DNA of 64,000 bases from Escherichia coli (GTDB lineage Bacteria; Pseudomonadota; Gammaproteobacteria; Enterobacterales; Enterobacteriaceae). A model generated the notes under the pieces. The model saw only the letters and a list, made by a program, of their open reading frames with translations. It had not been told where the DNA came from and ran no database searches. The stretch is from NCBI RefSeq assembly GCF_003019035.1, contig NZ_CP027447.1. The stretch is one strand, 5' to 3'. This document shows positions 1,592-43,714 of the stretch, one piece after another; positions within the stretch are counted from its first letter, which is position 1; every line of letters begins with the position of its first letter. The translations under genes were made by a program, and so were the position numbers.

Positions 1592-2590
1592 TCAGGCGTT
1601 GGCGTCTTTGACTTCGCGGATGATGTCCTGGTACTCGCGCAATTTCTGCGGAGTCATCATACGGCGCTGATCGTCAAGCACTACACCGCCCACTTCATCG
1701 GCAATATGCTGCGCAGATTGCAGCATCAGCTTGAAGTTCTGCAGCTCGTCACCGTAAGACGGTACCTGCATAAAGATAGTGACACCCGGAGTAGTGAAAT
1801 CCTTCATTTCAGGATCAAAGGTTCCCGGTTTCACCATATTCGCCAGGCTAAATAACGCCGGGCCGCTGCCATCCGGGCTAAGATGACGATGGTAAATATT
1901 CATATCGCCAAAAATGAAGCCCGCTTGTTGAATGCTGTTAAGAAGCAGTTCACCGTTTAGCTCGCTACCGTGATGCGCCGCGACGTTCATGATAATCACC
2001 GCTTCTTTGCGCTTCGGTTTATCCATAACTGGAGCCGGTTCCGCTACAGGCTCAGGCTGTGGTGCCGCTACAGGCTCTGCAGGCTGGAAAGCCTGTTGTG
2101 CCGGTTGCGGTGCTGAATGCACTGGCTGCGGCGCTGATGCGACCTGTGGCGAAACTGGCTGCTGCAACGGCTGTTCAGGCTGCGGCTGATAGGCAGGCTG
2201 CTGCACGGGTTGCTGCACCGGCTGCGCTGGACGCGGAGCATGTTGCGGCGGTACCTGAGCTTCAGGCGGCTGCTGGACCGGTTGACGCGGCTGCGCAGAC
2301 GCATAAGGCGGTTGGTACTGGTGTTGCGGCGACGGACGAGCAGCCTCATGCTCCTGGGCGTTAGCCGGGGCATGATTCACGCGGTGAACTCGAACCTCAC
2401 CAACGCCCTCATCATCTTCGACATCCTCGTCATAAGAATCGTCGTCACGTTTTGACTTCATTCGTTTTAATGGCCGATCGCGGAACATAGAAGATCGTTC
2501 TTTACGGCTGGTCCAGAAACCATGTACCAGTAAAGCGATTATGGCGATCGCGCCAACAATGATTAATATCAGACGCAAATCCTGCATCAT
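1592..2590 (-). CDS. zipA: Cell division protein ZipA
   Basis: ORF track 1592..2641(-) trimmed to the [26 protein letters not shown] start; N-terminal TM helix, P/Q-rich linker, C-terminal ...[10 protein letters not shown]. Confidence 0.9.
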
Positions 2591-2819
2591 TATATTCTCT
2601 GTTGTTCTAACACCTTGCCACCACGGCAAACATTTACTCACTAAGAGTATTTGCCGATTACCTCAAGTGCAAGTGCACTATTAACTTTCACAGCACAAAG
2701 ATAGATGAAATCGTGCTTTTTGCTGTTTTTTCGAACATATCCTAACTGTCCATTGCGCAATTACCCGGTAAAATACGCAGAATTTTCCTGGGATTGGTCA
2801 AAAGGAGCTCATCCTGATT

Positions 2820-3581
2820 ATGGTTTCATCATTCACATCTGCCCCACGCAGCGGTTTTTACTATTTTGCGCAAGGCTGGAAGCTCGTCTCGCAACCTGGG
2901 ATTCGGCGTTTCGTTATTTTACCGCTGCTGGTCAATATTTTGTTGATGGGGGGCGCATTCTGGTGGCTATTTACGCAGCTCGATGTCTGGATCCCGACGC
3001 TCATGAGTTATGTTCCGGACTGGTTACAATGGCTGAGCTATCTGTTGTGGCCTCTGGCTGTCATCTCTGTGCTGTTAGTGTTTGGCTATTTCTTCTCAAC
3101 GATTGCTAACTGGATTGCCGCTCCGTTCAATGGTTTATTGGCTGAACAACTGGAAGCACGATTGACTGGCGCTACACCGCCAGATACCGGGATTTTCGGT
3201 ATCATGAAAGATGTGCCGCGAATCATGAAACGCGAATGGCAAAAATTTGCCTGGTATCTGCCGCGCGCAATTGTATTGCTAATTCTTTACTTCATCCCTG
3301 GTATTGGGCAAACCGTCGCGCCGGTACTATGGTTCCTGTTTAGCGCCTGGATGTTAGCCATCCAGTATTGCGATTACCCCTTCGATAACCACAAAGTGCC
3401 GTTTAAAGAGATGCGCACCGCCCTGCGCACACGCAAAATCACCAATATGCAGTTTGGTGCTTTAACCAGCCTGTTTACGATGATCCCGTTGCTTAATCTG
3501 TTCATCATGCCCGTTGCCGTTTGTGGTGCGACGGCGATGTGGGTCGATTGCTATCGCGATAAACACGCGATGTGGCGGTAA
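2820..3581 (+). CDS. cysZ: Sulfate transporter CysZ
   Basis: 253-aa [34 protein letters not shown]..., polytopic membrane protein, position upstream of cysK. Confidence 0.9.
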
Positions 3582-3765
3582 CAATCTACCGGTTATTTTG
3601 TAAACCGCTTGTGTGAAACAGGGGTGGCTTATGCCGCCCCTTATTCCATCTTGCATGTCATTATTTCCCTTCTGCATATAGATATGCTAAATCCTTACTT
3701 CCGCATATTCTCTGAGCGGGTATGCTACCTGTTGTATCCCAATTTCATACAGTTAAGGACAGGCC

Positions 3766-4737
3766 ATGAGTAAGATTTTTGAAGATAACTCGCTGACTAT
3801 CGGTCACACGCCGCTGGTTCGCCTGAATCGCATCGGTAACGGACGCATTCTGGCGAAGGTGGAATCTCGTAACCCCAGCTTCAGCGTTAAGTGCCGTATC
3901 GGTGCCAACATGATTTGGGATGCCGAAAAGCGCGGCGTGCTGAAACCAGGCGTTGAACTGGTTGAACCAACCAGCGGTAATACCGGGATTGCACTGGCCT
4001 ATGTCGCTGCCGCTCGCGGTTACAAACTTACCCTGACCATGCCAGAAACCATGAGTATTGAACGCCGCAAGCTGCTGAAAGCGTTAGGTGCAAACCTGGT
4101 GCTGACCGAAGGTGCTAAAGGCATGAAAGGCGCAATCCAAAAAGCAGAAGAAATTGTCGCCAGCAATCCAGAGAAATACCTGCTGCTGCAACAATTCAGC
4201 AATCCGGCAAACCCTGAAATTCACGAAAAAACCACCGGTCCGGAGATCTGGGAAGATACCGACGGTCAGGTTGATGTATTTATTGCTGGCGTTGGGACTG
4301 GCGGTACGCTGACTGGCGTCAGCCGCTACATTAAAGGCACCAAAGGCAAGACCGATCTTATCTCTGTCGCCGTTGAGCCAACCGATTCTCCAGTTATCGC
4401 CCAGGCGCTGGCAGGTGAAGAGATTAAACCTGGCCCGCATAAAATTCAGGGTATTGGCGCTGGTTTTATCCCGGCTAACCTCGATCTCAAGCTGGTCGAC
4501 AAAGTCATTGGCATCACCAATGAAGAAGCCATTTCTACCGCACGTCGTCTGATGGAAGAAGAAGGTATTCTTGCTGGTATCTCTTCTGGAGCAGCTGTTG
4601 CCGCGGCGTTGAAACTACAAGAAGATGAAAGCTTTACCAACAAGAATATTGTGGTTATTCTACCATCATCGGGTGAGCGTTATTTAAGCACCGCATTGTT
4701 TGCCGATCTCTTCACTGAGAAAGAACTGCAACAGTAA
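3766..4737 (+). CDS. cysK: Cysteine synthase A (O-acetylserine sulfhydrylase A)
   Basis: 323-aa [27 protein letters not shown]...; PLP-fold motifs SVKCRIG and GNTGIALA. Confidence 0.95.
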
Positions 4738-5422: not shown

Positions 5423-7150
5423 ATGATTTCAGGCATTTTAGCATCCCCGGGTATCGCTTTCGGTAAAGCTCTGCTTCTGAAAGAAGACGAAATTGTCATT
5501 GACCGGAAAAAAATTTCTGCCGACCAGGTTGATCAGGAAGTTGAACGTTTTCTGAGCGGTCGTGCCAAGGCATCAGCCCAGCTGGAAACGATCAAAACGA
5601 AAGCTGGTGAAACGTTCGGTGAAGAAAAAGAAGCCATCTTTGAAGGGCATATTATGCTGCTCGAAGATGAGGAGCTGGAGCAGGAAATCATAGCCCTGAT
5701 TAAAGATAAGCACATGACAGCTGACGCAGCTGCTCATGAAGTTATCGAAGGTCAGGCTTCTGCCCTGGAAGAGCTGGATGATGAATACCTGAAAGAACGT
5801 GCGGCTGACGTACGTGATATCGGTAAGCGCCTGCTGCGCAACATCCTGGGCCTGAAGATTATCGACCTGAGCGCCATTCAGGATGAAGTCATTCTGGTTG
5901 CCGCTGACCTGACGCCGTCCGAAACCGCACAGCTGAACCTGAAGAAGGTGCTGGGTTTCATCACCGACGCGGGTGGCCGTACTTCCCACACCTCTATCAT
6001 GGCGCGTTCTCTGGAACTGCCTGCTATCGTGGGTACCGGTAGCGTCACCTCTCAGGTGAAAAATGACGACTATCTGATTCTGGATGCCGTAAATAATCAG
6101 GTTTACGTCAATCCAACCAACGAAGTTATTGATAAAATGCGCGCTGTTCAGGAGCAAGTGGCTTCTGAAAAAGCAGAGCTTGCTAAACTGAAAGATCTGC
6201 CAGCTATTACGCTGGACGGTCACCAGGTAGAAGTGTGCGCTAACATTGGTACGGTTCGTGACGTTGAAGGTGCAGAGCGTAACGGCGCTGAAGGCGTTGG
6301 TCTGTATCGTACTGAGTTCCTGTTCATGGACCGCGACGCGCTGCCCACTGAAGAAGAACAGTTTGCTGCTTACAAAGCAGTGGCTGAAGCGTGTGGCTCG
6401 CAGGCGGTTATCGTTCGTACCATGGACATCGGCGGCGACAAAGAGCTGCCATACATGAACTTCCCGAAAGAAGAGAACCCGTTCCTCGGCTGGCGCGCTA
6501 TCCGTATCGCAATGGATCGTAAAGAGATCCTGCGCGATCAGCTCCGCGCTATCCTGCGTGCCTCGGCTTTCGGTAAATTGCGCATTATGTTCCCGATGAT
6601 CATCTCTGTTGAAGAAGTGCGTGCACTGCGCAAAGAGATCGAAATCTACAAACAGGAACTGCGCGACGAAGGTAAAGCGTTTGACGAGTCAATTGAAATC
6701 GGCGTAATGGTGGAAACACCGGCTGCCGCAACAATTGCACGTCATTTAGCCAAAGAAGTTGATTTCTTTAGTATCGGCACCAATGATTTAACGCAGTACA
6801 CTCTGGCAGTTGACCGTGGTAATGATATGATTTCACACCTTTACCAGCCAATGTCACCGTCCGTGCTGAACTTGATCAAGCAAGTTATTGATGCTTCTCA
6901 TGCTGAAGGCAAATGGACTGGCATGTGTGGTGAGCTTGCTGGCGATGAACGTGCTACACTTCTGTTGCTGGGGATGGGTCTGGACGAATTCTCTATGAGC
7001 GCCATTTCTATCCCGCGCATTAAGAAGATTATCCGTAACACGAACTTCGAAGATGCGAAGGTGTTAGCAGAGCAGGCTCTTGCTCAACCGACAACGGACG
7101 AGTTAATGACGCTGGTTAACAAGTTCATTGAAGAAAAAACAATCTGCTAA
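5423..7150 (+). CDS. ptsI: PTS enzyme I (phosphoenolpyruvate-protein phosphotransferase)
   Basis: 575-aa [34 protein letters not shown]...; GGRTSHTSI phosphohistidine motif. Confidence 0.95.
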
Positions 7151-7190
7151 TCCACGAGATGCGGCCCAATTTACTGCTTAGGAGAAGATC

Positions 7191-7700
7191 ATGGGTTTGT
7201 TCGATAAACTGAAATCTCTGGTTTCCGACGACAAGAAGGATACCGGAACTATTGAGATCATTGCTCCGCTCTCTGGCGAGATCGTCAATATCGAAGACGT
7301 GCCGGATGTCGTTTTTGCGGAAAAAATCGTTGGTGATGGCATTGCTATCAAACCAACTGGAAACAAAATGGTCGCGCCTGTAGACGGCACCATTGGTAAA
7401 ATCTTTGAAACCAACCACGCGTTCTCTATCGAATCTGATAGCGGCGTTGAACTGTTCGTCCACTTCGGTATCGACACCGTTGAACTGAAAGGCGAAGGCT
7501 TCAAGCGTATTGCTGAAGAAGGTCAGCGCGTGAAAGTTGGCGATACTGTCATTGAATTTGATCTGCCGCTGCTGGAAGAGAAAGCCAAGTCTACCCTGAC
7601 TCCGGTTGTTATCTCCAACATGGACGAAATCAAAGAACTGATCAAACTGTCCGGTAGCGTAACCGTGGGTGAAACCCCGGTTATCCGCATCAAGAAGTAA
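7191..7700 (+). CDS. crr: Glucose-specific PTS enzyme IIA (EIIA-Glc)
   Basis: 169-aa [42 protein letters not shown]... Confidence 0.95.
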
Positions 7701-7714
7701 TTCTTGCCGCAGTG

Positions 7715-7745
7715 AAAAATGGCGCCCATCGGCGCCATTTTTTTA
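7715..7745. terminator. Bidirectional intrinsic terminator between convergent crr and pdxK
   Basis: aaaaatggcgcc-catc-ggcgccattttt perfect hairpin flanked by A-run upstream and T-run downstream; overlaps the pdxK stop. Confidence 0.65.
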
Positions 7746-8594
7746 TGCTTCCGCCAGCGGCGGCAAAATCAATTCATCGCTCTCATGCTGCTGGGTATAG
7801 CGCATCACTTCCAGTACGCGCAACCCCGCGCGGTGCACCGCATCGTTTAACGCCTTCCCTTTCAGCAAACCACTGATAAGCTGAGCACAAAACAGGTCGC
7901 CAGTCCCTTTCAGGTCGGTTTTTACCCGTGAATGGGAAATGACATTCACGCTGTCGGCACTCACCACCACCACCTGCATCTCCTGATTTTCTTCGTTACC
8001 GGAGGCGCTGGTAACCACCACCCATTTTAATGTGTCTGAAAGCAGACTTTTTGCGGCAGCAATGGCACTGTCGAGATCGCGGCAATTTTTACCGGTCAGG
8101 ATTTCCAGCTCAAAGATATTGGGGGTAATTCCCTGCGCCAGCGGCAGTAAATATTGTCGATACGCCTCGGGAAGGTCAGGTTTGACATAAATTCCGCTAT
8201 CAATATCGCCAATCACCGGATCGACCATGATCAATAGGTCAGGATGGTCTTTGCGTAGCGCAGTCAGCCACTCGGCAAGGATTTTGATTTGCGATGCCGT
8301 TCCCATATAGCCCGTGGTTACAGCTCGAAGTTGGCGCAGCGCATCACGCTCCTGAAGCGCACGCAAATAACCGCTAAACCATTCATCCGGAATCGCACCA
8401 CCGTAGAAAGTGTCATAATGCGGCGTATTGCTCAGCAATACCGTCGGCACGGCAAAGACATTCAGGCCGTTCTGTTTGATAGCAGGCACCGCAATGCTGT
8501 TGCCTACGCTGCCGTACACTACCTGCGACTGCACGGCAACGATATCCGCCTGCAGTGCCCTGCTCTTATCGTTAAACAACAACAAACTACTCAT
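7743..8594 (-). CDS. pdxK: Pyridoxal/pyridoxine/pyridoxamine kinase
   Basis: 283-aa [35 protein letters not shown]... Confidence 0.9.
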
Positions 8595-8607
8595 TTAATT
8601 TTTTCTC

Positions 8608-9067
<460 letters not shown>

Positions 9068-9069
9068 TC

Positions 9070-9981
9070 TTAAATCCCCGCCCCCTGGCTAAAATGCTCT
9101 TCCCCAAACACCCCGGTAGAAAGGTAGCGATCGCCACGATCGCAGATGATCGCCACCACCACCGCGCCAGGGTTAGCTTTTGCCACTCGCAGTGCACCAG
9201 CAACCGCGCCGCCGGAGCTAACGCCACAGAAAATCCCTTCCCGCGCCGCCAGTTCGCGCATAGTGTTTTCCGCATCGCGCTGATGAATATCCAGCACCTC
9301 ATCCACCAGAGAAGCGTTGAAAATTCCCGGCAGATATTCCGCAGGCCAGCGGCGAATGCCTGGAATACTGCTGCCTTCTTCCGGCTGCAGGCCAACAATC
9401 GTCACCGGTTTGGATTGTTCGCGCATAAAGCGTGACACGCCGGTGATAGTGCCGGTTGTTCCCATGCTGGAGACAAAATGGGTAATGCGCCCGCCAGTCT
9501 GCTGCCAGATTTCCGGCCCGGTGGTGGTGTAATGGGCGAAGGGATTATCAGGATTATTGAACTGATCGAGCAGCTTTCCTTCACCACGATTGGCCATCTC
9601 CAGCGCCAGATCGCGCGCACCTTCCATGCCCTGCTCTTTGGTGACCAGAATCAGTTCCGCACCGTAGGCACGCATTGCCGCACGGCGTTCCTGGCTCATG
9701 TTGTCGGGCATCAGCAATTTCATGCGATAGCCTTTAAGCGCGGCAATCATTGCCAGCGCAATGCCGGTGTTACCACTGGTGGCTTCGATCAACACATCAC
9801 CCGGTTTAATCTCGCCGCGCTTTTCCGCCTCGACAATCATCGAAAGCGCTGCACGGTCTTTTACCGATCCCGCCGGGTTATTGCCTTCCAGTTTTAACCA
9901 CACTTCACTGCCGTTATCCGGCCCCATTCGCTGCAACTTCACCAGAGGCGTATTGCCAATTGTTTGTTCTAATGTACTCAC
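9070..9981 (-). CDS. cysM: Cysteine synthase B (O-acetylserine sulfhydrylase B)
   Basis: ORF track 9070..10059(-) trimmed to GTG start (V)STLEQTIGNTPLVKLQRMGPDNGSEVWLKLEGNNPAGSVKDR; 303 aa. Confidence 0.9.
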   Translation of the reverse strand: MSTLEQTIGNTPLVKLQRMGPDNGSEVWLKLEGNNPAGSVKDRAALSMIVEAEKRGEIKPGDVLIEATSGNTGIALAMIAALKGYRMKLLMPDNMSQERRAAMRAYGAELILVTKEQGMEGARDLALEMANRGEGKLLDQFNNPDNPFAHYTTTGPEIWQQTGGRITHFVSSMGTTGTITGVSRFMREQSKPVTIVGLQPEEGSSIPGIRRWPAEYLPGIFNASLVDEVLDIHQRDAENTMRELAAREGIFCGVSSGGAVAGALRVAKANPGAVVVAIICDRGDRYLSTGVFGEEHFSQGAGI

Positions 9982-10004
9982 GATCTCTGTCCATACGTGG
10001 TGTT

Positions 10005-10040
10005 GCCTGATGCGACGCTTGCGCGTCTTATCAGGCCTAC
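10005..10040. repeat. REP (repetitive extragenic palindromic) element in cysA-cysM spacer
   Basis: gcctgatgcgacgcttgcgcgtcttatcaggcctac, classical REP palindrome. Confidence 0.7.
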
Positions 10041-10114
10041 AGGTTACAAACCTTGCCATTAAAAAGCCCGGATCGCGGGAAGCGCCTCCGGGCGTTTAAC
10101 ATTCACTCAACCTA

Positions 10115-11212
10115 TCAGGCGCTTTGTGCGAGAGCAAGTTCCTCATCGCGGGTTTCAATACGCTCGTCGCCGTTATACAGCCGCGCATGTTGCAGACCAA
10201 CGAATAAACGCTCGCCACGTTGCGGGGCGTCGTCGCCGTGCATCACGACCGTCAGCGCTTCGTTGTACCACCCCAGCGGCTGCACGACTAATTGGGTGTA
10301 GTGGCCTTTCGGGCTGGCTTCCAGTACCTGTACCGGCAGCGGCGAATCGAGGCTGGTACGGCGGCTGATATCCACTTCCCACGGACGCAGGAAGAGATCC
10401 ACCGGCCCCTGATACGCAGGTGTATAGCCCAGCGGCCAGCGATGTGCGCCAACATGGAACTGCCCGCCGCGAATGGTTCCCTGCAGGCGGTTCACTTCGC
10501 CCATAAATTCGAGTACAAAACGGGTCGCTGGTTCGCGCCATACCTGGTCCGGTGCATCAGCCTGCTCGATATTGCCCTGGCTCATCACCACTACACGATC
10601 GGCTACTTCGGTCGCTTCTTCCTGGTCATGGGTCACAAACACGCTGGTGAATTTCAGCTCTTCATGTAACTGACGCAGCCAGCGACGCAACTCTTTACGC
10701 ACCTGCGCATCCAGCGCGCCAAACGGTTCATCAAGCAGCAGAATTTGCGGTTCTACGGCAAGCGCGCGCGCCAGCGCCACACGCTGTTTCTGGCCGCCGG
10801 AAAGCTGCGCAGGATAGCGGTCTGCCAGATGGGCAAGCTGCACCATCTCCAGCAATTTTGTCACTTTCGCTTTGATAGCTGCGGCATTCGGGCGCTCGCG
10901 ACGCGGCAGCACCGTCAGGCCGAAAGCGATATTGTCGAACACCGTCATATGGCGGAACAGCGCGTAATGCTGAAACACGAAACCGACTTTACGATCGCGC
11001 GCATGCAGGCGGCTGACGTCGGTGCCGTGGAAGCGAATATGCCCGCTGGTTTGATGCTCCAGCCCGGCGATAATCCGCAGCAGCGTGGTTTTCCCGGAAC
11101 CGGACGGCCCCAGCAATGCGACCATCTGACCAGAAGGAATATCCAGTGAGATATCGTTCAGCACCTGGGTGCGACCAAAAGACTTCTTAATATTGGCAAT
11201 CTCAATGCTCAT
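10115..11212 (-). CDS. cysA: Sulfate/thiosulfate ABC transporter ATP-binding protein
   Basis: 365-aa ORF; Walker [13 protein letters not shown] signature LSGGQKQR, Walker B LLLDEP. Confidence 0.95.
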
Positions 11213-12077
11213 GATGTTCCTCCTGCTGCGCGCGTTTTTCCTGATTCTCCAGACGCCACTGCAACATACTCTTTAAAAACAGGGTGATAATCGCCATCAG
11301 CGTCAACAACGCGGCAGCGGTAAAGGAGCCGACGGTGTTGTAGTCCTGCTCCAGCAATTCAATCTGTAACGGCAGCGAAAGTGTTTCGCCGCGAATCGAG
11401 CCGGAAACTACCGACACCGCACCAAACTCGCCAATCGCGCGGGCGTTGGTCAGCACCACGCCATAAAGCAGCGCCCAGCGGATGTTCGGCAGCGTGACGC
11501 GACGGAACATCTGCCAGCCAGATGCGCCCAGCAAAATCGCTGCTTCGTCTTCCTGGCTGCCCTGGCTTAACATTACCGGCACCAGCTCGCGCACCACAAA
11601 CGGACAGGTCACGAAGATGGTGACCAGCACCATTCCCGGCCAGGAGAACATAATTTGCAGGTTATGCTCATCCAGCCAGCCACCGAGCGGGCCGTTAGAG
11701 CCGTAAAACAGCAGATACACCAGACCGGCAACCACCGGCGACACGGCAAACGGAATGTCCAGCAGCGTCAGCAGCAACTGGCGTCCGGGGAAGTTAAAGC
11801 GCGTCACCAGCCAGGCCAGCAGAATGCCGAACACCAGGTTCACCGGCACGGCAATCAGCGCAATCATCACCGTCAGCCAGATGGCGTGCAGCATGTCCGG
11901 ATCGGCCAGATTCTGTAAAACCGGCATCAGCCCTTTGCTGAACGCCTGCACGAAGATGTAAATCATCGGCACCAGCAGGATGAACGCCGAAACCAGCATC
12001 CCGATGCCAATCAGAAACCATTTGCCCCAGTTAATCGGGCGCGCGTCATAACGCTTCAATTGTGTCACTTCCGCCAT
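11202..12077 (-). CDS. cysW: Sulfate/thiosulfate ABC transporter permease CysW
   Basis: 291-aa polytopic [27 protein letters not shown]...; overlaps cysA by 11 bp (translational coupling). Confidence 0.9.
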
Positions 12078-27384: not shown

Positions 27385-28746
27385 TCAGAAGAACAGTGAC
27401 GGATCGCCCGCCCGTTTGGTCAGGCGACCGTTTGCCATAATGCCCATGCTTTCCAGCCAGCGTTCAAACTCCGGTGACGGGCGCAGATTCAGTAACTGAC
27501 GCACAGTGGCAGTGTCGTGGAATGCGGTGGTCTGATAGTTGAGCATGATGTCATCGCCCAGCGGCATCCCCATGATGTAGTTGCAGCCTGCGGTGGCGAG
27601 CAGGATCATCAGGTTTTCGTTGAGGTTCTGGTCAGCGTCAGCGTGGTTGGTGTAGCAGCAGTCACAGCCCATAGAGATGCCACTCAGCTTGCCCATAAAG
27701 TGATCTTCTAAGCCCGCACGGATAATCTGGCGGTCGTTGTAGAGATACTCCGGCCCAATAAAGCCGACCACGGTGTTGACGATAAACGGATCGTAATGAC
27801 GCGCCAGCCCGTAGTTACGCGCTTCCATCGTCACCTGGTCTGCGCCGAAGTTAGCGCCAGCAGACAGCGCCGAACCTTGTCCGGTTTCGAAGTAGAGGCA
27901 GTTTTCCCCGGCGATACGGTTAAACTCTGCACCCACTGCGCGCGCTTCGTCGAGCATCGCCAGCTCCACGCCAAACTCTTTCAGCCCTTTTTCGCTGCCG
28001 CAAATACTCTGGAAAATCAGCCCGCCCGGTGCGCCGCGACGAATCGCTTCGATCTGGGTGGTGACGTGCGCCAGTACGCAGCCCTGAGTTGGGATGTTGA
28101 ATTTGTCGATCACGCCATAGATGGTATCCAACACGCGGCTTAAGTTTTCCACGTCGTCAGTCACCGGGTTAACGCCGATCACCGCATCGCCCACCCCGAA
28201 GGAAAGCCCTTCGTAGATTTGCGCGGCGATACTTTGCACATCGTCACGGGTATCGTTTGGCTGCAAGCGGGCGCTAAAGGTGCCCGGAATACCGATGGTG
28301 GTATTGGCCTTTTTGATCACCGGCATTTTCTTCGCGCCGTAGATCAGGTCCGCGTTGGAGCAAATCTTCGCTACCGCCGCTACCACTTCCGAGGTCAGCC
28401 CTTTGCGGGTAAAGGCAATGTCGTCCACGCTGGTTTCATCGCTCAGCACATACTCACGCAGTTCGCTGATGCTCCAGTTTTTAATCTGGTTGTAGGCCGT
28501 TTCGTTAACGTCGTCCTGAATCAGCCGCGTCACGCAGTCATCTTCATAGGCAATCACCGGATTATTGCGGATGTCCGCTACGGTCATTTCCGACAACACC
28601 TGCTTTGCCGCCACGCGCTCCTGTGAGCTTGCCGCAGCAACGCCCGCCAGCACATCCCCCGAACGCAGTTCGTTGGCTTTAGCCAGCACCTCTTTTACAT
28701 CCTTAAACTGATATACATTGCCGAACAATGTGGTCTTTAGTTTCAT
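27385..28746 (-). CDS. eutB: Ethanolamine ammonia-lyase large subunit
   Basis: 453-aa ORF MKLKTTLFGNVYQFKDVKEVLAKANELRSGDVLAGVAAASSQERVAAKQV... Confidence 0.95.
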   Translation of the reverse strand: MKLKTTLFGNVYQFKDVKEVLAKANELRSGDVLAGVAAASSQERVAAKQVLSEMTVADIRNNPVIAYEDDCVTRLIQDDVNETAYNQIKNWSISELREYVLSDETSVDDIAFTRKGLTSEVVAAVAKICSNADLIYGAKKMPVIKKANTTIGIPGTFSARLQPNDTRDDVQSIAAQIYEGLSFGVGDAVIGVNPVTDDVENLSRVLDTIYGVIDKFNIPTQGCVLAHVTTQIEAIRRGAPGGLIFQSICGSEKGLKEFGVELAMLDEARAVGAEFNRIAGENCLYFETGQGSALSAGANFGADQVTMEARNYGLARHYDPFIVNTVVGFIGPEYLYNDRQIIRAGLEDHFMGKLSGISMGCDCCYTNHADADQNLNENLMILLATAGCNYIMGMPLGDDIMLNYQTTAFHDTATVRQLLNLRPSPEFERWLESMGIMANGRLTKRAGDPSLFF

Positions 28747-28757
28747 AAGTCGTTCCC

Positions 28758-30161
28758 TCAGGAAGGAAATGCGAGTGATTTCACCGTCACCGGCACAACC
28801 GATCCGCCAAAAAGAGGCGTACCAATGTCGATATAGTCCCCCGCGCGGACAATCACTTCGTCAATGACTGCCAACGGGAGTTGTTGTAGCTGTGGGCGCA
28901 ACAACATGCCCAGAGCTTTACCAAAGTCCTGCCCGGCCACCACCAGCAGGGGATGCGGATTCGGAAAACGCGCGACGAAATCGACCAACGCGTTGATGAC
29001 CGTCAGTACCGCGGCGTAACGCACAGGCAGCGAGGCGGGAAGCGCCAGCACGTACGCGTCAGTTTTAGGATCAAGATCCAGCTGAATCAGCGCCTGTTGC
29101 CAGGCACTCACCAGATCCTTTTCATCAATTGGGATCGCCACCGGCAAGTTGCGCAGCGGCAGTTGTACGCCCTCCAGCCAGATTGTGCTGCCAGAGAGCG
29201 AAAGGGTATGTGCACCCGCGCCAATCACCGTGGCGCGCACGGTTTGCGCCGGAAACTGCACGTTCATCTCACGCAGGCGCGGATGGTCATGCAGCGCCGT
29301 TGCCAGAAGCGGGCCAATATCGGCAAAACAGAACGGGTCGGCGGGCTGGTGGCGATAACATTCGCCCACGCCGCCAGAAAGCGTAATGATTTCGGGCGTA
29401 ACACCTGCGGGCAGCAAACCGGTTTGCATTAATGCCTGCGCGAGCGGCGAAAGCGTTCCGTCAATCACTTCGACAATCAGCTCTGCCATCCGCCGGGTAA
29501 CCTGCACCAGCTGCGCGCCGGTCAGCGAACGGGCGTCGGTGCCTGCGCCGAAGCACTCATCCACAATCATCTGCCCCGGTTTATGAGCGTAAACCACGCG
29601 CCCCTGGCTGTCGGTTTCCAGCAGGCGACCGCCGACATTGAGGCAGGCGGTGCCGCTGATTTTTCCGGCATCGAACAGGGCGTAGTTCGCGGTGCCACCG
29701 CCGATATCGATATTCAGGACCCGACACAGCCGTTGTTCAGAAAGGGTTTGCGCCCCGGCACCGTGACCGGCGATCACGGATTCGAGATGCGGTCCAGCGC
29801 TGGCGACGACAAAATCGCCCAGCGACTGGGAGAGCGTCATCACCGCCGGGCGAGCGTTGCGGGTTTTCGCGCTTTCACCGGTGATGATGATGGCACCAGA
29901 ATCAACGCTTTCCGGCGCAATGCCCGCAGCCTGATATTGCTCGAGGATTAAGGTTTTCAGTTCCGCTTCTTTTAAACCACCCTGTTTATCGACAGGGGTA
30001 AAGAACACCGGGCTTTGCCAGCTAATTTCGCGTTTGATGAATTCGTAGCGCGGCACCTGCGACACCGCCGCACGGTTAACCAGCTCCAGGTGGGAGAAAA
30101 TCACCTGGGTGGTGGTGGTGCCGATATCGATACCGACGCTCAGTAGCTGGCGAGTGTTCAC
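28758..30161 (-). CDS. eutA: Ethanolamine ammonia-lyase reactivase EutA
   Basis: 467-aa ORF MNTRQLLSVGIDIGTTTTQVIFSHL...; starts 11 bp after eutB with no intervening prophage. Confidence 0.9.
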   Translation of the reverse strand: MNTRQLLSVGIDIGTTTTQVIFSHLELVNRAAVSQVPRYEFIKREISWQSPVFFTPVDKQGGLKEAELKTLILEQYQAAGIAPESVDSGAIIITGESAKTRNARPAVMTLSQSLGDFVVASAGPHLESVIAGHGAGAQTLSEQRLCRVLNIDIGGGTANYALFDAGKISGTACLNVGGRLLETDSQGRVVYAHKPGQMIVDECFGAGTDARSLTGAQLVQVTRRMAELIVEVIDGTLSPLAQALMQTGLLPAGVTPEIITLSGGVGECYRHQPADPFCFADIGPLLATALHDHPRLREMNVQFPAQTVRATVIGAGAHTLSLSGSTIWLEGVQLPLRNLPVAIPIDEKDLVSAWQQALIQLDLDPKTDAYVLALPASLPVRYAAVLTVINALVDFVARFPNPHPLLVVAGQDFGKALGMLLRPQLQQLPLAVIDEVIVRAGDYIDIGTPLFGGSVVPVTVKSLAFPS

Positions 30162-38699: not shown

Positions 38700-39035
38700 T
38701 TAACTTTTGGTCATTTCACAAAGCGTATAATTTAATAAGCGTCCTAAACCACTGACGGTTTGTGATAACGCTTCTTCTACTGCGCCCACCGAGCCATAAA
38801 TCACCAGCGCGCCGCTAAAACGGTCGAGAAAACCGATATGCACATCGGCGGCTTTCAACGCTAAATCACCGGCGATCATCGCCGTTTCTCCGGGAGTTAG
38901 CGTCATAATGCCGATTGCGCCCGCATCCGGAACGCCGATTTTCTTCGCCAGTTCCTCGCCGGGATGCGCGATGAGATGCGCCAGTGTGACCTGTTTACCG
39001 GGCACAAATTCCTGAATGATGCGTTCTTTATCCAT
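38700..39035 (-). CDS. eutS: BMC shell protein EutS
   Basis: ORF track 38700..39107(-) trimmed to [32 protein letters not shown]; 111 aa; first gene of the eut operon. Confidence 0.85.
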
Positions 39036-39400
39036 GAGTCGCCGCCTGTGAAAAACTTTCGTGTATCGTGACAATTTTTCGTCAGAGTAAATAACAAAAT
39101 TCGGCAAGCGCGTTTAAAAGGTGAGGTAGATCACTAAGAATGGAGAGATATTTTATGTTAAGAAAAAAAACATACATTGTATGAATATAAACGGGAACCA
39201 ATAAGTTTTGTTTATCATATGTACTACAACATCTTTTAATAATCCCTCGAATCACCCGACGTTGTATTTTTAATAATTAGCAGAATACATATTTAATGTA
39301 CTGTTGTATTCTGAAAAATATTATTATCTTCACCCCATTTAAAATACATCTTACGCGATGATTTTATTCAGGAAATAAATAAAATGGATGGATCCCTGGA
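39036..39400. promoter_or_regulatory. AT-rich divergent promoter region (eut operon promoter upstream of eutS; promoter of the plus-strand glycosyltransferase cassette)
   Basis: 365-bp strongly AT-rich spacer between the divergent eutS and glycosyltransferase starts; the regulatory role is inferred, no site was mapped. Confidence 0.5.
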
Positions 39401-40471
39401 ATGAAAATTCACTACCTTGTCACCACCCTCGAAGCGGGAGGCGCTGAATTTGCGATTCCTGATATTGTGACTACTCTGCAAGACCTTGGTCATGAGGTGA
39501 AAATTTATGTCTGTGAACCCCGCGATATGGGAGCAGCGCCTCGTCTGGAAGCCGCTGGATTATCCTGGTGTTTATTATCAAATCGGCGGCGTTCTGAACC
39601 CATGCTTGTAGCTGCTTATCTGGCAAAAATCATTCACGACAAACCCGATCTCATCTGGACTTCGTTAAGTTGGGGGACTCGTATTGGGCAATGGGTCGGC
39701 CGGCTTATGGGCATTCCTGTTATCAGTTTTAAACATAGCGCCAGCGTAAAACCAGCGACCTGGCGTATGCGCAACATGTCTCGTTTATGGATAGGAGATT
39801 CTGAAACCGTAGCTCAATACCTGCATGAAACCATGTTGATCCCGAAGCAACAAGTGCTGTGCTGGCCCTTTTTTCAGGCGAATCCGCAAGCTGCCCAAGC
39901 GCAAAACTGGGACGGGAAATCAGTTTTACAATTAGGCTCTGTTGGACGCCTGCATGAAGTTAAAAATTACGCTGGATTAATTACAGCACTCGCTTCGTTT
40001 GTAGATAAAAACCCGCAATTGCGCTCGCGAATCCGATTAACCATTCTCGGTGAAGGGCCTGAACAGGAAGCATTGCAAAAAACCATAACGCAACACGCGT
40101 TGGAGGATGTGGTTTGTTTAGCGGGTTTTTCTGCGGATGTCGAAAATTTTCTTGCCGGATTACATGTCTACATCCAGACCTCCCGCTACGAAGGGATGTG
40201 CCTCGCTGCACACGAAGCCATGAATGCAGGGCTTGCAATCATCACGACTCCTGTAGGCGAACTTAAAGAATCGGTAATAGATGGTCATACTGGATATACG
40301 CTTAATGGCGAGCTAACGCCAGCGCTGGAGGGTGTGCTTAACCGTATTTTAAGTGAACCCGAAGAATTAGAACGCTATGGGCAAAATGTGCGGCAGTATG
40401 TATTAGCGAAGTTCAGCCATGAAAATTTTGTCCAGTCTGCAATCAACATCGTCAATAGACTTATTCACTGA
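39401..40471 (+). CDS. Glycosyltransferase family 1 (GT-B fold, GT4-like) protein; accessory gene
   Basis: 356-aa ORF; C-terminal region RYEGMCLAAHEAMNAGLAIITTPVGELKESVIDGHTGY resembles the retaining GT1/GT4 sugar-donor binding motif; to my recollection K-12 has no gene between eutS and maeB. Confidence 0.7.
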   Translation: MKIHYLVTTLEAGGAEFAIPDIVTTLQDLGHEVKIYVCEPRDMGAAPRLEAAGLSWCLLSNRRRSEPMLVAAYLAKIIHDKPDLIWTSLSWGTRIGQWVGRLMGIPVISFKHSASVKPATWRMRNMSRLWIGDSETVAQYLHETMLIPKQQVLCWPFFQANPQAAQAQNWDGKSVLQLGSVGRLHEVKNYAGLITALASFVDKNPQLRSRIRLTILGEGPEQEALQKTITQHALEDVVCLAGFSADVENFLAGLHVYIQTSRYEGMCLAAHEAMNAGLAIITTPVGELKESVIDGHTGYTLNGELTPALEGVLNRILSEPEELERYGQNVRQYVLAKFSHENFVQSAINIVNRLIH

Positions 40472-40484
40472 ACAAGGCAGAAAA

Positions 40485-41387
40485 ATGAATTGCTATACCA
40501 CCGATCTTTGGCAGATAGGCATTGTTCAGGCCCCCATACAGCACATTGTTGCTTCTGGCAGTTTGGATGGCTTCAGGATTAAATGGATTACCCCGGATAA
40601 ATCACTCACTTTTCTTGCCGATCCTTTCGGTCTGTGGAAAAAAGGGGTTCTCTATCTTTTCGCGGAATCCTACGATTATCGGACTCGTCGTGGCGATATT
40701 ATCGCTTATAAGCTCAATGCTGACCTGGACGTCATTGAGCAACGAACTGTGCTACAAGAACCCTGGCATCTTTCTTATCCTTTTGTGTTTGAAGCCGATA
40801 ACGAAATCTGGATGTTACCTGAAGGATATAAATCAGGTACGCTAACGTTGTACCGCGCTATAGAGTTTCCCTGGCGATGGGAAAAGGTGCCAGATTTTTC
40901 ATTCCCTTGCGCTGCCATTGATGCCACCCCCTTTTACGCACAAGGAAAATGGTGGATGTTTTATACTCCCCCACTACCAAAGGCAGCCAGGACGGATACG
41001 TTAATGCTCGCTCATGCCCCCCATTTTATGGGGCCATGGGAAAACGTCCTGCAAACTGCCGCGCACAGGAATAAAAGCGGCGCGCGTATGGGCGGAACAC
41101 CATTTGATCATGATGGGCAAATTTTCTTACCAACACAAGATTGCAGCCGAACCTACGGTGGCGCATTGCAGATGCTGACACTAGACCCACAACGTTTATT
41201 AACTCCAGAATTTGCTGCCTCTGTGCGCCTGGAAGTGCCTGCAAGTGCCGCGCCTTTTATTGCTGGCATGCATACGCTTTCTGGCGTTGGCGACGTAACA
41301 TTCATTGATGCCAAGCGACACCTTAAAGGTTCGCCTCAGCGATTATGGGTGGATTTGCAGCGGCGGATACAGAAGTGGATCAGCTAA
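40485..41387 (+). CDS. Hypothetical protein, possibly beta-propeller glycoside-hydrolase-like; co-transcribed with the upstream glycosyltransferase
   Basis: ORF track 40419..41387 trimmed to ATG 40485 (MNCYTTDLWQIGIV...), 13 bp after the GT stop with aagg RBS; DPFG..W and aromatic-rich repeats (WHLSYPFVFEADNEIWMLPEGY, KWWMFYTPP); family assignment unverified. Confidence 0.55.
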   Translation: MNCYTTDLWQIGIVQAPIQHIVASGSLDGFRIKWITPDKSLTFLADPFGLWKKGVLYLFAESYDYRTRRGDIIAYKLNADLDVIEQRTVLQEPWHLSYPFVFEADNEIWMLPEGYKSGTLTLYRAIEFPWRWEKVPDFSFPCAAIDATPFYAQGKWWMFYTPPLPKAARTDTLMLAHAPHFMGPWENVLQTAAHRNKSGARMGGTPFDHDGQIFLPTQDCSRTYGGALQMLTLDPQRLLTPEFAASVRLEVPASAAPFIAGMHTLSGVGDVTFIDAKRHLKGSPQRLWVDLQRRIQKWIS

Positions 41388-41389
41388 AC

Positions 41390-41417
41390 CGCTTACCCTG
41401 AATATTCAGGGTAAGCG
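41390..41417. terminator. Perfect 28-bp palindrome between the accessory cassette and maeB (bidirectional terminator candidate)
   Basis: cgcttaccctgaata/tattcagggtaagcg: 13-bp arms with a 2-nt loop, between convergent ORF 40485..41387(+) and maeB(-). Confidence 0.55.
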
Positions 41418-41434
41418 TGAGAGTTAAGAATGAA

Positions 41435-43714
41435 TTACAGCGGTTGGGTTTGCGCTTCAACCACAGCCAGCGCCACCATGTTGACGATACGACGTACCGA
41501 TGCGATCGGCGTTAACACGTGAACCGGTTTCGCCACGCCCATCAGCACCGGACCGACAGTCACACCTTCCGAGCTGGAAACGCGCAGTAAGTTGTAACTA
41601 ATGCGGGCAGCTTCCATGTTCGGCATCACCAGAATATTAGCGGAACCTTTCAAAGGGCTGTCCGGCATACGGTCGTTGCGAATCGCTTCCACCAGCGCTG
41701 CATCGCCGTGCATTTCACCATCAATCATCAGTTCTGGCGCACGTTCCCTGACCAGTTCCAGCGCCTGACGCATTTTGCTCGACGACGGGCAGTCAGAAGA
41801 ACCAAAGTTGGAGTGCGACAACAGAGCCACACGCGGTTCAATACCAAAACGACGAACAGTTTCTGCCGCCATCAAGGTGATCTCCGCCAGCTCTTCTGCA
41901 TCAGGCTCATCATTGACGTAGGTATCGGCAATAAAGGTGTTACCACTCGGCAACAGCAGCGCGTTCATTGCACCTGCGGTGTGAACGCCATCGCGATAAC
42001 CAAAGACATTTTTCACCACGCTAAAGTGTTCATGATAATCGCCCACCGTACCGCAAATCATTGCATCGGCTTCGCCACGCTGAACCATGATCGCGCCGAT
42101 CACTGTCGGGTTACTGATCAGCGCACGCTGCGCCTGCTCCTGAGTGACACCGCGACGCTTCATGATCTGGAAGTATTCGGTCCAGTACTCTTTAAAGCGC
42201 GGATCGGATTCGTTATTGACGATCTCAAAATCAACACCCGCTTTGATCTGCAAGCCCAGTTTCTGAATGCGCATTTCGATCACGTTCGGACGACCAATAA
42301 GAATCGGTTTCGCCAGTCCCAGCGTTACCAGTTCCTGAGTGGCATGCAGAACGCGCGCCTCTTCCCCTTCCGGCAGAACGACGCGCTTCGGCGCTTTGCG
42401 AGCCTGGGAGAAAATCGGCTTCATAAACAGGTTGGTTTTGTAAACGAACTCCGTCAGCTTGTCGATGTAGACGTCGAAATCAGCAATCGGACGCGTCGCC
42501 ACGCCAGACTCCATCGCCGCTTTCGCCACCGCTGGAGCGATCTTAACGATCAAGCGCGGATCAAACGGTTTTGGAATGATGTATTCCGGACCAAAGCTCA
42601 GATCCTGATCGCCATACGCTGAAGCCACCACTTCACTCTGTTCCGCATGGGCCAGTTCTGCAATCGCGCGTACTGCCGCCAGTTTCATCTCTTCGTTGAT
42701 GGCGGTTGCGCCAACGTCCAGCGCGCCACGGAAGATAAACGGGAAGCAAAGGACGTTGTTCACCTGGTTCGGGTAGTCGGAACGGCCGGTACAGATGATG
42801 GCATCCGGACGCACTTCTTTCGCCAGCGGCGGCAGAATTTCCGGTTCCGGATTCGCCAGCGCCAGGATCATTGGTGCCCGAGCCATTTTCTTCACCATTT
42901 CCTGGGTCAGCACTTTCGGGCCGGAACAACCCAGGAAAATATCCGCGCCTTCAATCACATCATCGAGGGTACGTTTGCCGTCATCCACCACCGCATATGC
43001 GGCTTTGGTTTCCGCCATATTTGGCTCACGGCCCTGATAGATAACGCCTTTTGAATCACAAACCACGATGTTATGTTTTTGCAGCCCCAGCGCCACCAGC
43101 AGGTTCATACAGGCGATTGCTGCTGCACCCGCGCCGGAAACCACCATCCGCACGTCGGAGATGTTTTTCTCCACCACGCGCAATCCGTTGAGGATGGCGG
43201 CAGTGCTGATAATTGCCGTGCCGTGCTGATCGTCGTGGAATACTGGAATATTCATCCGCTCGCGCAGTTTCTGTTCAATATAGAAACATTCTGGCGCTTT
43301 AATGTCTTCGAGGTTGATGCCGCCGAAGGTCGGTTCAAGCGCGGCGACGACTTCAATAAATTTGTCCGGGTCGAGTTCATCAACTTCAATGTCAAATACA
43401 TCAATCCCGGCGAATTTCTTAAACAGAACGCCCTTGCCTTCCATCACCGGTTTGCCTGCCAGCGCGCCAATGTTGCCTAACCCCAGCACCGCCGTACCGT
43501 TAGAGATCACCGCCACCAGGTTACCACGCGCGGTATATTTGTAGGCTTTTAACGGGTCTTTTTCGATTTCAAGACAAGGTGCGGCAACGCCTGGTGAGTA
43601 GGCCAGCGCCAGATCGCGCTGCGTTGCCAGAGGCTTGGTTGGAGAAACCTGGATTTTCCCTGGAACTGGAAATTCATGGAAATCAAGTGCACTTTGTTTT
43701 AACTGGTCATCCAT
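41435..43714 (-). CDS. maeB: NADP-dependent malic enzyme (with C-terminal PTA-like domain)
   Basis: 759-aa [47 protein letters not shown]... Confidence 0.95.

Follow-up and report, generated by a model that had tools for sequence, protein, structure and literature searches.

What is the two-gene segment that lies between eutS and maeB in some Escherichia coli chromosomes, and what might its products do? The segment was analyzed in a stretch of 64,000 nucleotides from contig NZ_CP027447.1 of assembly GCF_003019035.1 (hereafter the window). Its two open reading frames (ORFs) encode a glycosyltransferase of CAZy family GT4 (ORF1) and a predicted beta-propeller protein (ORF2), and genes for the same two proteins are found together in distantly related bacteria. 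Comparison of sequences and predicted structures leads to a tentative reading, given slightly less than an even chance, in which the segment would be a self-contained module, acquired horizontally, of two enzymes that build or modify a glycan at the cytoplasmic side of the inner membrane. The features on which this reading depends are the following.

39154–41380, plus strand: accessory segment, 2,227 bp, delimited by blastn alignment of the window with the CE10 empty site
39401–40471, plus strand: ORF1, 356 amino acids (aa), from the ORF listing
40472–40484: gap of 13 nt between ORF1 and ORF2, from the sequence
40485–41387, plus strand: ORF2, 300 aa, from the ORF listing

The two encoded proteins

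ORF1 is an intact, soluble glycosyltransferase of the GT-B type in CAZy family GT4, as judged from its Pfam domains, its conserved EX7E, basic, and glycine residues, and the absence of a transmembrane segment. The Pfam matches are to PF00534 (Glycos_transf_1; E 2.2e-29, residues 178–332) and PF13439 (Glyco_transf_4; E 7.6e-9, residues 13–155), with PF13692 and PF13579 matched as well, and RefSeq labels the ORF1 product of a second E. coli allele (allele B, described below) "glycosyltransferase family 4 protein". GT4 is a retaining family. Across 23 orthologues the first glutamate of the EX7E motif (E264) is invariant and the second (E272) is at least 90% conserved, and R183, K188, and the N-terminal Gly-Gly pair (G13 and G14) are likewise invariant. 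The AlphaFold2 (AF2) model consists of two alpha/beta halves with pLDDT ∼90. ORF1 thus resembles the GT4 enzymes MshA, BshA, TarM, and PglJ in having both GT-B halves, the EX7E motif, the donor-site Arg and Lys, and a length typical of GT4. Its solved relatives, MshA, BshA, TarM, and PglJ-type enzymes, are matched at E ∼1e-10 or weaker, with identity limited to the C-terminal half. In contrast to the curated GT4 families, ORF1 falls below every NCBIfam cut-off, the best of its sub-threshold matches being TIGR03088 ("stp2", PEP-CTERM/XrtA, exosortase-associated) at 119 bits against a cut-off of 409.

ORF2 matches Pfam GINT1_N (PF24793; E 4.3e-35, model positions 58–252 of 304), and all its homologues carry the same precomputed domain. 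A high-confidence model predicts a soluble five-bladed beta-propeller of the GH43/62/117/130 type; no signal peptide is detected. Foldseek searches with the model rank GH117 and GH43 as high as GH130. The remaining Pfam matches are weak and partial, to GH43 (E 0.0026 and 0.29), and the GH130 profile is not among the matches up to E 10. A PDB profile search returns GH43-type chains only, at E of at least 0.008, and the N-terminal "ADPF" of ORF2 aligns with low score with the GH43 "GDPY" ("DP") motif. No match is found in NCBIfam, PADLOC, or PHROGs. The predicted five-bladed propeller is shared both with the GH130 beta-mannoside phosphorylases and GT108 mannosyltransferases (PDB 9fj8 and 9erh), although identity to these is 8–15%, and with the GH43, GH62, and GH117 hydrolases. 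Enzymes of the latter families are as a rule secreted and break down polysaccharides of plants or algae, whereas ORF2 is linked to biosynthetic genes and carries no export signal.

Conservation within the family is consistent with catalysis. Among 32 ORF2 homologues, 35 residues are invariant, including D46, D64, E92, R201, and H263, and D146, R66, R68, and K277 are near-invariant. Invariant polar residues occur in each blade of the propeller; D46, E92, H263, and D146 lie in or beside predicted blade strands, and R201 lies before the strands of the fourth blade. These conserved residues point to a putative active site in the central funnel, and ORF2 is presumed to be an enzyme acting on a glycoside.

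The RefSeq product name of ORF2, [quoted passage not shown], misleads, since ORF2 lacks the GT64 catalytic domain found in plant GINT1; its Pfam matches are confined to GINT1_N and the weak GH43 hits, and a single propeller spans its 300 aa. PF24793 is the N-terminal domain of plant GINT1; whereas the plant protein also has the GT64 domain, the partner of ORF2 is a separate GT4 protein. The plant acceptor, inositolphosphorylceramide, is not known to be made by E. coli. GT64 of GINT1 and GT4 of ORF1 are both retaining glycosyltransferases, each accompanied by a propeller. The propeller family is large (∼9,600 clusters at 50% identity), and many members, the most distant ones especially, are ∼550 aa long with an N-terminal extension of ∼250 aa. 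The extension has no Pfam match in the one ∼550-aa member tested (locus 8001–9656), and some other long members are labeled "formyl transferase" by their sources. The literature yielded nothing usable on the bacterial function of the GINT1_N family or on ST648-specific genes at eut.

The start of ORF2 adopted here also differs from the annotated one. PGAP/RefSeq begins the gene at the ATG at 40419, giving 322 aa and an overlap of 53 nt with ORF1. The start at 40485 is better supported, since homologues are 297–305 aa long, the UniProt model has 300 aa, and an AAGG Shine-Dalgarno-like motif lies 8–11 nt 5' of 40485; the PGAP/RefSeq start is probably over-long.

A preliminary description of this locus, made from the letters of the window, had given the coordinates, the gene calls, a 365-bp spacer, a 13-bp gap, and strands opposite to those of eutS and maeB, all of which are borne out by the ORF listing. 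It had named ORF1 a family-1 glycosyltransferase, and the PF00534 and PF13439 matches uphold "glycosyltransferase", whereas "family-1" applies to the Pfam group 1 and not to CAZy, where the protein is GT4 and not GT1. Its idea of a beta-propeller for ORF2 agrees with the five-bladed model, but its treatment of ORF2 as an unknown protein of no family must be abandoned in view of the GINT1_N match, GINT1_N itself having no known function in bacteria.

The gene pair in other bacteria and its proposed function

In 52 of the 83 loci examined in other species the GT4 orthologue and the propeller gene are adjacent, the paired loci belonging to Enterobacterales, Acetobacteraceae, sphingomonads, and Caulobacter. 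The homologue lists of ORF1 and ORF2 span the same taxa, the pairwise divergences of the two proteins are correlated (r = 0.83), and the pair is conserved in ∼400 species representatives. This conservation across distant taxa argues that ORF1 and ORF2 form a functional module, as the preliminary description had thought plausible for a glycosyltransferase and its partner. Many other family members are fused to other domains or have no adjacent GT4.

The pair occurs in two kinds of setting. In Shimwellia (beside suf), Pluralibacter (beside a fimbrial operon), Rouxiella (between a cation-efflux gene and nadA), and Aristophania (at an unrelated site) it stands alone, and the isolated pair is intact in at least four other enterobacterial genera. 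Its occurrence alone at unrelated sites implies that substrates from the host suffice for it. Caulobacter, Sphingobium, and Acetobacter, all Alphaproteobacteria, have beside the pair a Wzx-type flippase (Polysacc_synt_3, 1.5e-11), more transferases, and a protein with weak similarity to TagF. The apparent five-gene operon of Caulobacter sp. RHG1 (locus 5989–11760), for example, comprises the propeller, a weakly TagF-like protein of ∼400 aa, a Wzx-type flippase, the GT4 orthologue, and a second GT4, and the families of the ∼400-aa protein and the flippase recur beside the pair in sphingomonads and Acetobacter. For one long-form member of ∼550 aa, the surroundings are an exopolysaccharide locus that also encodes two flippases, several GT4s, and an acetyltransferase and contains exosortase genes; GT2 genes likewise occur in the polysaccharide-type loci with the pair or the long form.

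In the proposed mechanism ORF1 would use a nucleotide sugar as donor and attach its hexose to an acceptor, retaining the configuration, and ORF2 would act on the product. Most likely ORF2 would attach a second sugar unit, with inverting chemistry of the phosphorylase or transferase type like that of GH130/GT108 propellers; alternatively, it might trim the product. In the closest structural relatives the same fold performs both phosphorylase and sugar-nucleotide transferase chemistry (PMC12814180). Because neither a dedicated flippase nor an initiating transferase is encoded at the E. coli locus, the pair would act by decorating a lipid-linked envelope glycan, or a lipid, already made by the host, and the polysaccharide context of the pair elsewhere makes such an acceptor the most economical guess. 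The segment recalls the gtrABC-type serotype-converting cassettes in being small, strain-variable, low in GC, glycosyltransferase-bearing, and placed between core genes. Unlike them, it has no GtrA-like flippase, GT2, membrane GT-C, or prophage context, and both of its proteins are soluble.

Alternatively, the acceptor might not belong to the envelope at all. The product of the GT4 enzyme might be a soluble sugar compound of the cytoplasm (a storage oligosaccharide or a compatible solute, for instance), and the propeller might break it down by hydrolysis or phosphorolysis; GH130/GT108 mannoside cycles and sucrose metabolism would be the models. This explanation is unlikely: the Wzx flippases and many transferases of the alphaproteobacterial and long-form loci are typical of loci for exported polysaccharides, neither Sphingomonas nor Caulobacter is a sugar-niche organism, and no transporter or kinase gene is linked to the pair.

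Alleles, origin, and control of the segment in E. coli

The surroundings of the segment in the window contain the following additional features.

38700–39035, minus strand: eutS, from the ORF listing
39036–39400: intergenic spacer, 365 bp, GC 0.315, from the ORF listing and sequence
39036–39153: eutS-proximal part of the spacer, 118 bp, outside the accessory segment and common to all E. coli, being identical in the window, K-12, CE10, MS 21-1, and GF131
39154–39261: left ∼105 nt of the accessory segment, collinear with but strongly diverged from empty-site DNA (∼66% identity)
39281–39313: perfect 9-bp inverted repeat, CAGAATACA-N15-TGTATTCTG, ∼120 nt upstream of ORF1, from a repeat search
41390–41417: perfect 14+14 palindrome (28 bp) between the convergent ORF2 and maeB stops, from a repeat search
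41435, minus strand: maeB stop, from the ORF listing

In K-12 MG1655, eutS (b2462) adjoins maeB (b2463), with 292 bp of intergenic DNA and no gene between them. CE10, a close relative with flanks 99.2–99.5% identical to the window, was taken as the reference for the empty site. In the blastn comparison identity with the window extends through 39153 and resumes at 41381, so that the 2,227 bp of the segment occupy the place of 120 bp in CE10. The segment is therefore a replacement of 120 bp and not a clean insertion. The stop codon of ORF2 (41385–41387) is inside sequence common to all E. coli, and the gene thus ends just within this shared DNA.

Among 5,426 complete genomes of E. coli, 90 (∼1.7%) carry the cassette and ∼98% lack it; all 90 copies are chromosomal and lie between eutS and maeB. 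Identity to the window is at least 99% for 83 copies (allele A), 91% for one, and ∼87% for six. In 82 of the 83 allele-A genomes, which come from humans, birds, dogs, pigs, a dolphin, and wastewater, the two ORFs are intact and virtually identical. The exception is isolate 624, an otherwise identical carrier in which IS1 lies between ORF1 and a 5'-truncated ORF2 (locus 3529–4226). The carriers include one strain named ST648, plus IMT16316, which is also ST648 (PMC6003029), and the whole window is 99.99% identical to strain SCU-301. Allele B occupies the same site in seven genomes, the copy in MS 21-1 being at locus coordinates 2136–4170. Its ORF1 is intact and differs from that of allele A at 99 of 1,071 nt (dS 0.31), with a dN/dS of 0.145 indicating purifying selection, and what is left of its ORF2 is 80% identical, with ∼370 bp deleted and additional gaps. 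The flanks of the two alleles are far closer, with 1.6% nucleotide divergence in maeB and 1 nt in eutS. GF131 carries a mosaic (locus 2137–4170) that resembles the window allele in its 5' part and allele B in its 3' part.

The foreign composition of the cassette is evident from the GC content at third codon positions (GC3), which is 0.44–0.46 in its two genes and 0.52–0.65 in the flanking genes, and the portion of the spacer not common to other E. coli (39154–39400) has a GC content of 0.275. No direct or inverted repeats were found at the segment edges in the repeat search, and no integrase, tRNA, or insertion sequence lies at its borders, eutS and maeB being core genes. A mobile genomic island was considered and rejected, there being no integrase or transposase, tRNA target, or flanking repeats, and IS1 occurring in one carrier only, inside ORF2. 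The plasmid collection contains no close copy (best match 42% identical) and the phage collection no close ORF2 homologue (a single match, 23.5% identical). The nearest homologues among the best 80 loci of a scan of species representatives are at most 66% (ORF2) and 68% (ORF1) identical in amino acid sequence and come from Pluralibacter, Serratia sp. M24T3 (Rouxiella-like), and Shimwellia. No other Escherichia species is among these 80 loci, although the scan was based on ORF2 peptide motifs and copies with a damaged ORF2 could escape it. Global alignment of the left ∼105 nt with the empty-site DNA gives 70 of 106 positions identical (z = 3.0, P = 0.0035 against shuffles), and the left part of allele B gives z = 2.3; local alignment for deletion remnants of the cassette within the 120 bp of empty-site DNA is not significant (P 0.11 and 0.92). 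The absence of border elements, the presence of diverged alleles in near-identical flanks, and the collinearity at the left junction favor import by recombination over site-specific insertion. Thus a diverged relative with the same eutS–maeB synteny was probably the source of the cassette haplotype, which E. coli would have acquired by homologous recombination.

These results agree with the preliminary description in two respects: the segment is strain-variable accessory DNA absent from K-12, and it is the only part of the window without a K-12 counterpart. Because gene order elsewhere in the window, from ligA to bamC, is that of K-12, the cassette is the sole gain relative to K-12. The insertion boundaries for which that description had called can be given (39154–41380), but the term insertion does not hold, as 120 bp are replaced, the left ∼105 nt look like a strongly diverged copy of the empty site, and no mobile-element signature is present.

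The 118 bp adjoining eutS are unchanged between cassette-bearing and empty sites and probably carry eut regulatory DNA; the literature yielded nothing usable on the position of the eutS promoter. As a separate observation, eutA and eutB are contiguous in the window (28746–28758), so that the eut operon is uninterrupted in this strain; this is the point at which K-12 carries the CPZ-55 prophage inside the operon. At the other end, the palindrome at 41390–41417 is also present at empty sites, CE10 and K-12 having the same sequence. It is presumed to be a bidirectional terminator, although a simple terminator scan did not flag it. An Rfam scan of the region gave no match.

Two elements of the spacer might bear on expression of the pair. 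The inverted repeat at 39281–39313 is kept in both alleles despite noticeable divergence of the surrounding spacer and is a candidate operator. PhoP boxes were also sought, using the consensus (T/G)GTTTA-N5-(T/G)GTTTA located ∼12 nt upstream of a −10 hexamer. Scores upstream of the orthologues in Rosenbergiella, Pluralibacter, and Serratia sp. M24T3 are 10–11 of 12 (P 0.002–0.1). Pluralibacter and Rosenbergiella have PhoP-box-like direct repeats followed 12 nt on by a −10-like hexamer, 127–151 nt upstream of the GT4 gene, and Serratia sp. M24T3 has phased PhoP half-sites upstream of its GT4 orthologue. The sequences are suggestive of PhoP control in these relatives; the E. coli site (39209–39225, in a region extending to 39243) is weak, scoring 9 of 12 with a shuffle P of 0.57, which is not significant.

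Four observations weigh against a two-enzyme module acting on an envelope glycan. The pair is dispensable, given that ORF2 is degraded in the seven allele-B or mosaic genomes and split by IS1 in one more. The scan of 38900–41600 found no sigma-70 consensus promoter in the spacer and terminators at chance level only. The isolated pair has neither a flippase nor a priming enzyme, so that we infer the envelope acceptor indirectly. Finally, AF2 did not dock the two domains of a GT4-(GGGGS)6-propeller fusion computed with 23 paired orthologue rows (pTM 0.53), although each domain is confident on its own, and this result gives no support for a GT4–propeller complex.

The first two of these observations are also what would be expected if the segment were silent or decaying accessory DNA in E. 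coli, contributing nothing and intact in ST648 only because the lineage is young; the 27.5% GC of the upstream spacer and the absence of the segment from 98% of E. coli point the same way. Nevertheless, this explanation is rather improbable in view of the purifying selection on ORF1 between alleles, the integrity of both ORFs in nearly all allele-A genomes from varied hosts, the conservation of the upstream inverted repeat, and the maintenance of the isolated pair in the other enterobacterial genera.

Remaining alternatives and significance

A further alternative is that the propeller is a non-catalytic partner of the GT4 enzyme, an acceptor-binding or stabilizing subunit as in pairs of the GtfA/GtfB type. 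The tight gene linkage and correlated divergence are compatible with such a subunit, as is the fusion in plants of the same domain to a GT64 transferase, from which the Pfam name derives. It is nevertheless improbable, since the fusion model has no confident interface, the invariant Asp, Glu, Arg, and His residues at inner blade strands suggest an active site, and many family members are fused otherwise or have no adjoining GT4. There is very little likelihood that the pair is a phage-derived or defense-related glycosyltransferase moron altering a surface receptor: ORF1 has a weak PHROG glycosyltransferase match (E 1e-10) and a weak Pfam GT4-conflict match (E 1e-5), but PADLOC assigns neither protein to any family, and the collections and borders described above offer no close phage or plasmid copy and no integrase, tRNA, or flanking repeats.

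Sphingolipid glycosylation, the literal meaning of the RefSeq name, is the least credible alternative and is rejected for E. coli, which is not known to make sphingolipids and whose ORF2, all propeller, has no GT64 domain; glycosyl inositolphosphorylceramide is not a known product of E. coli, and Enterobacterales, Rosenbergiella, and Carnimonas, all of which carry the pair, are not known to synthesize sphingolipids. The GINT1_N match is in its favor, and many carriers (sphingomonads, Caulobacter, Acetobacteraceae) are sphingolipid producers (PMC13318209), but the bacterial ceramide glycosyltransferases Sgt1 and Sgt2 are described without a propeller partner (PMC13318209).

The favored reading of the pair as a two-enzyme glycan module can be extended, although the extension is an unlikely one. 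The GINT1_N propeller might found, as its first bacterial member, a new family of carbohydrate-active enzymes. It would be a transferase or phosphorylase of the cytoplasm that resembles GH130/GT108 and together with a dedicated GT4 constitutes a minimal two-enzyme pathway to an undescribed glycoconjugate. The users of such a pathway would range from Caulobacter and sphingomonads to enterics and to Acetobacteraceae associated with insects and flowers, and in enterics it may be induced by a PhoP-type regulator of envelope stress.

The segment itself is ordinary strain-variable accessory DNA that encodes known protein families and is already annotated in RefSeq and UniProt. Two annotation problems are flagged here, namely the misleading RefSeq product name and the probably over-long start of ORF2. 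In E. coli the segment is a lineage marker that occurs in ST648-type strains, which belong to an internationally spread multidrug-resistant lineage, and a putative change of an envelope glycan or lipid could matter there for serum, phage, or host interactions. The wider interest lies in a conserved, functionally uncharacterized GT4–propeller pair, of which the small, isolated E. coli version provides a convenient genetic entry to the family.

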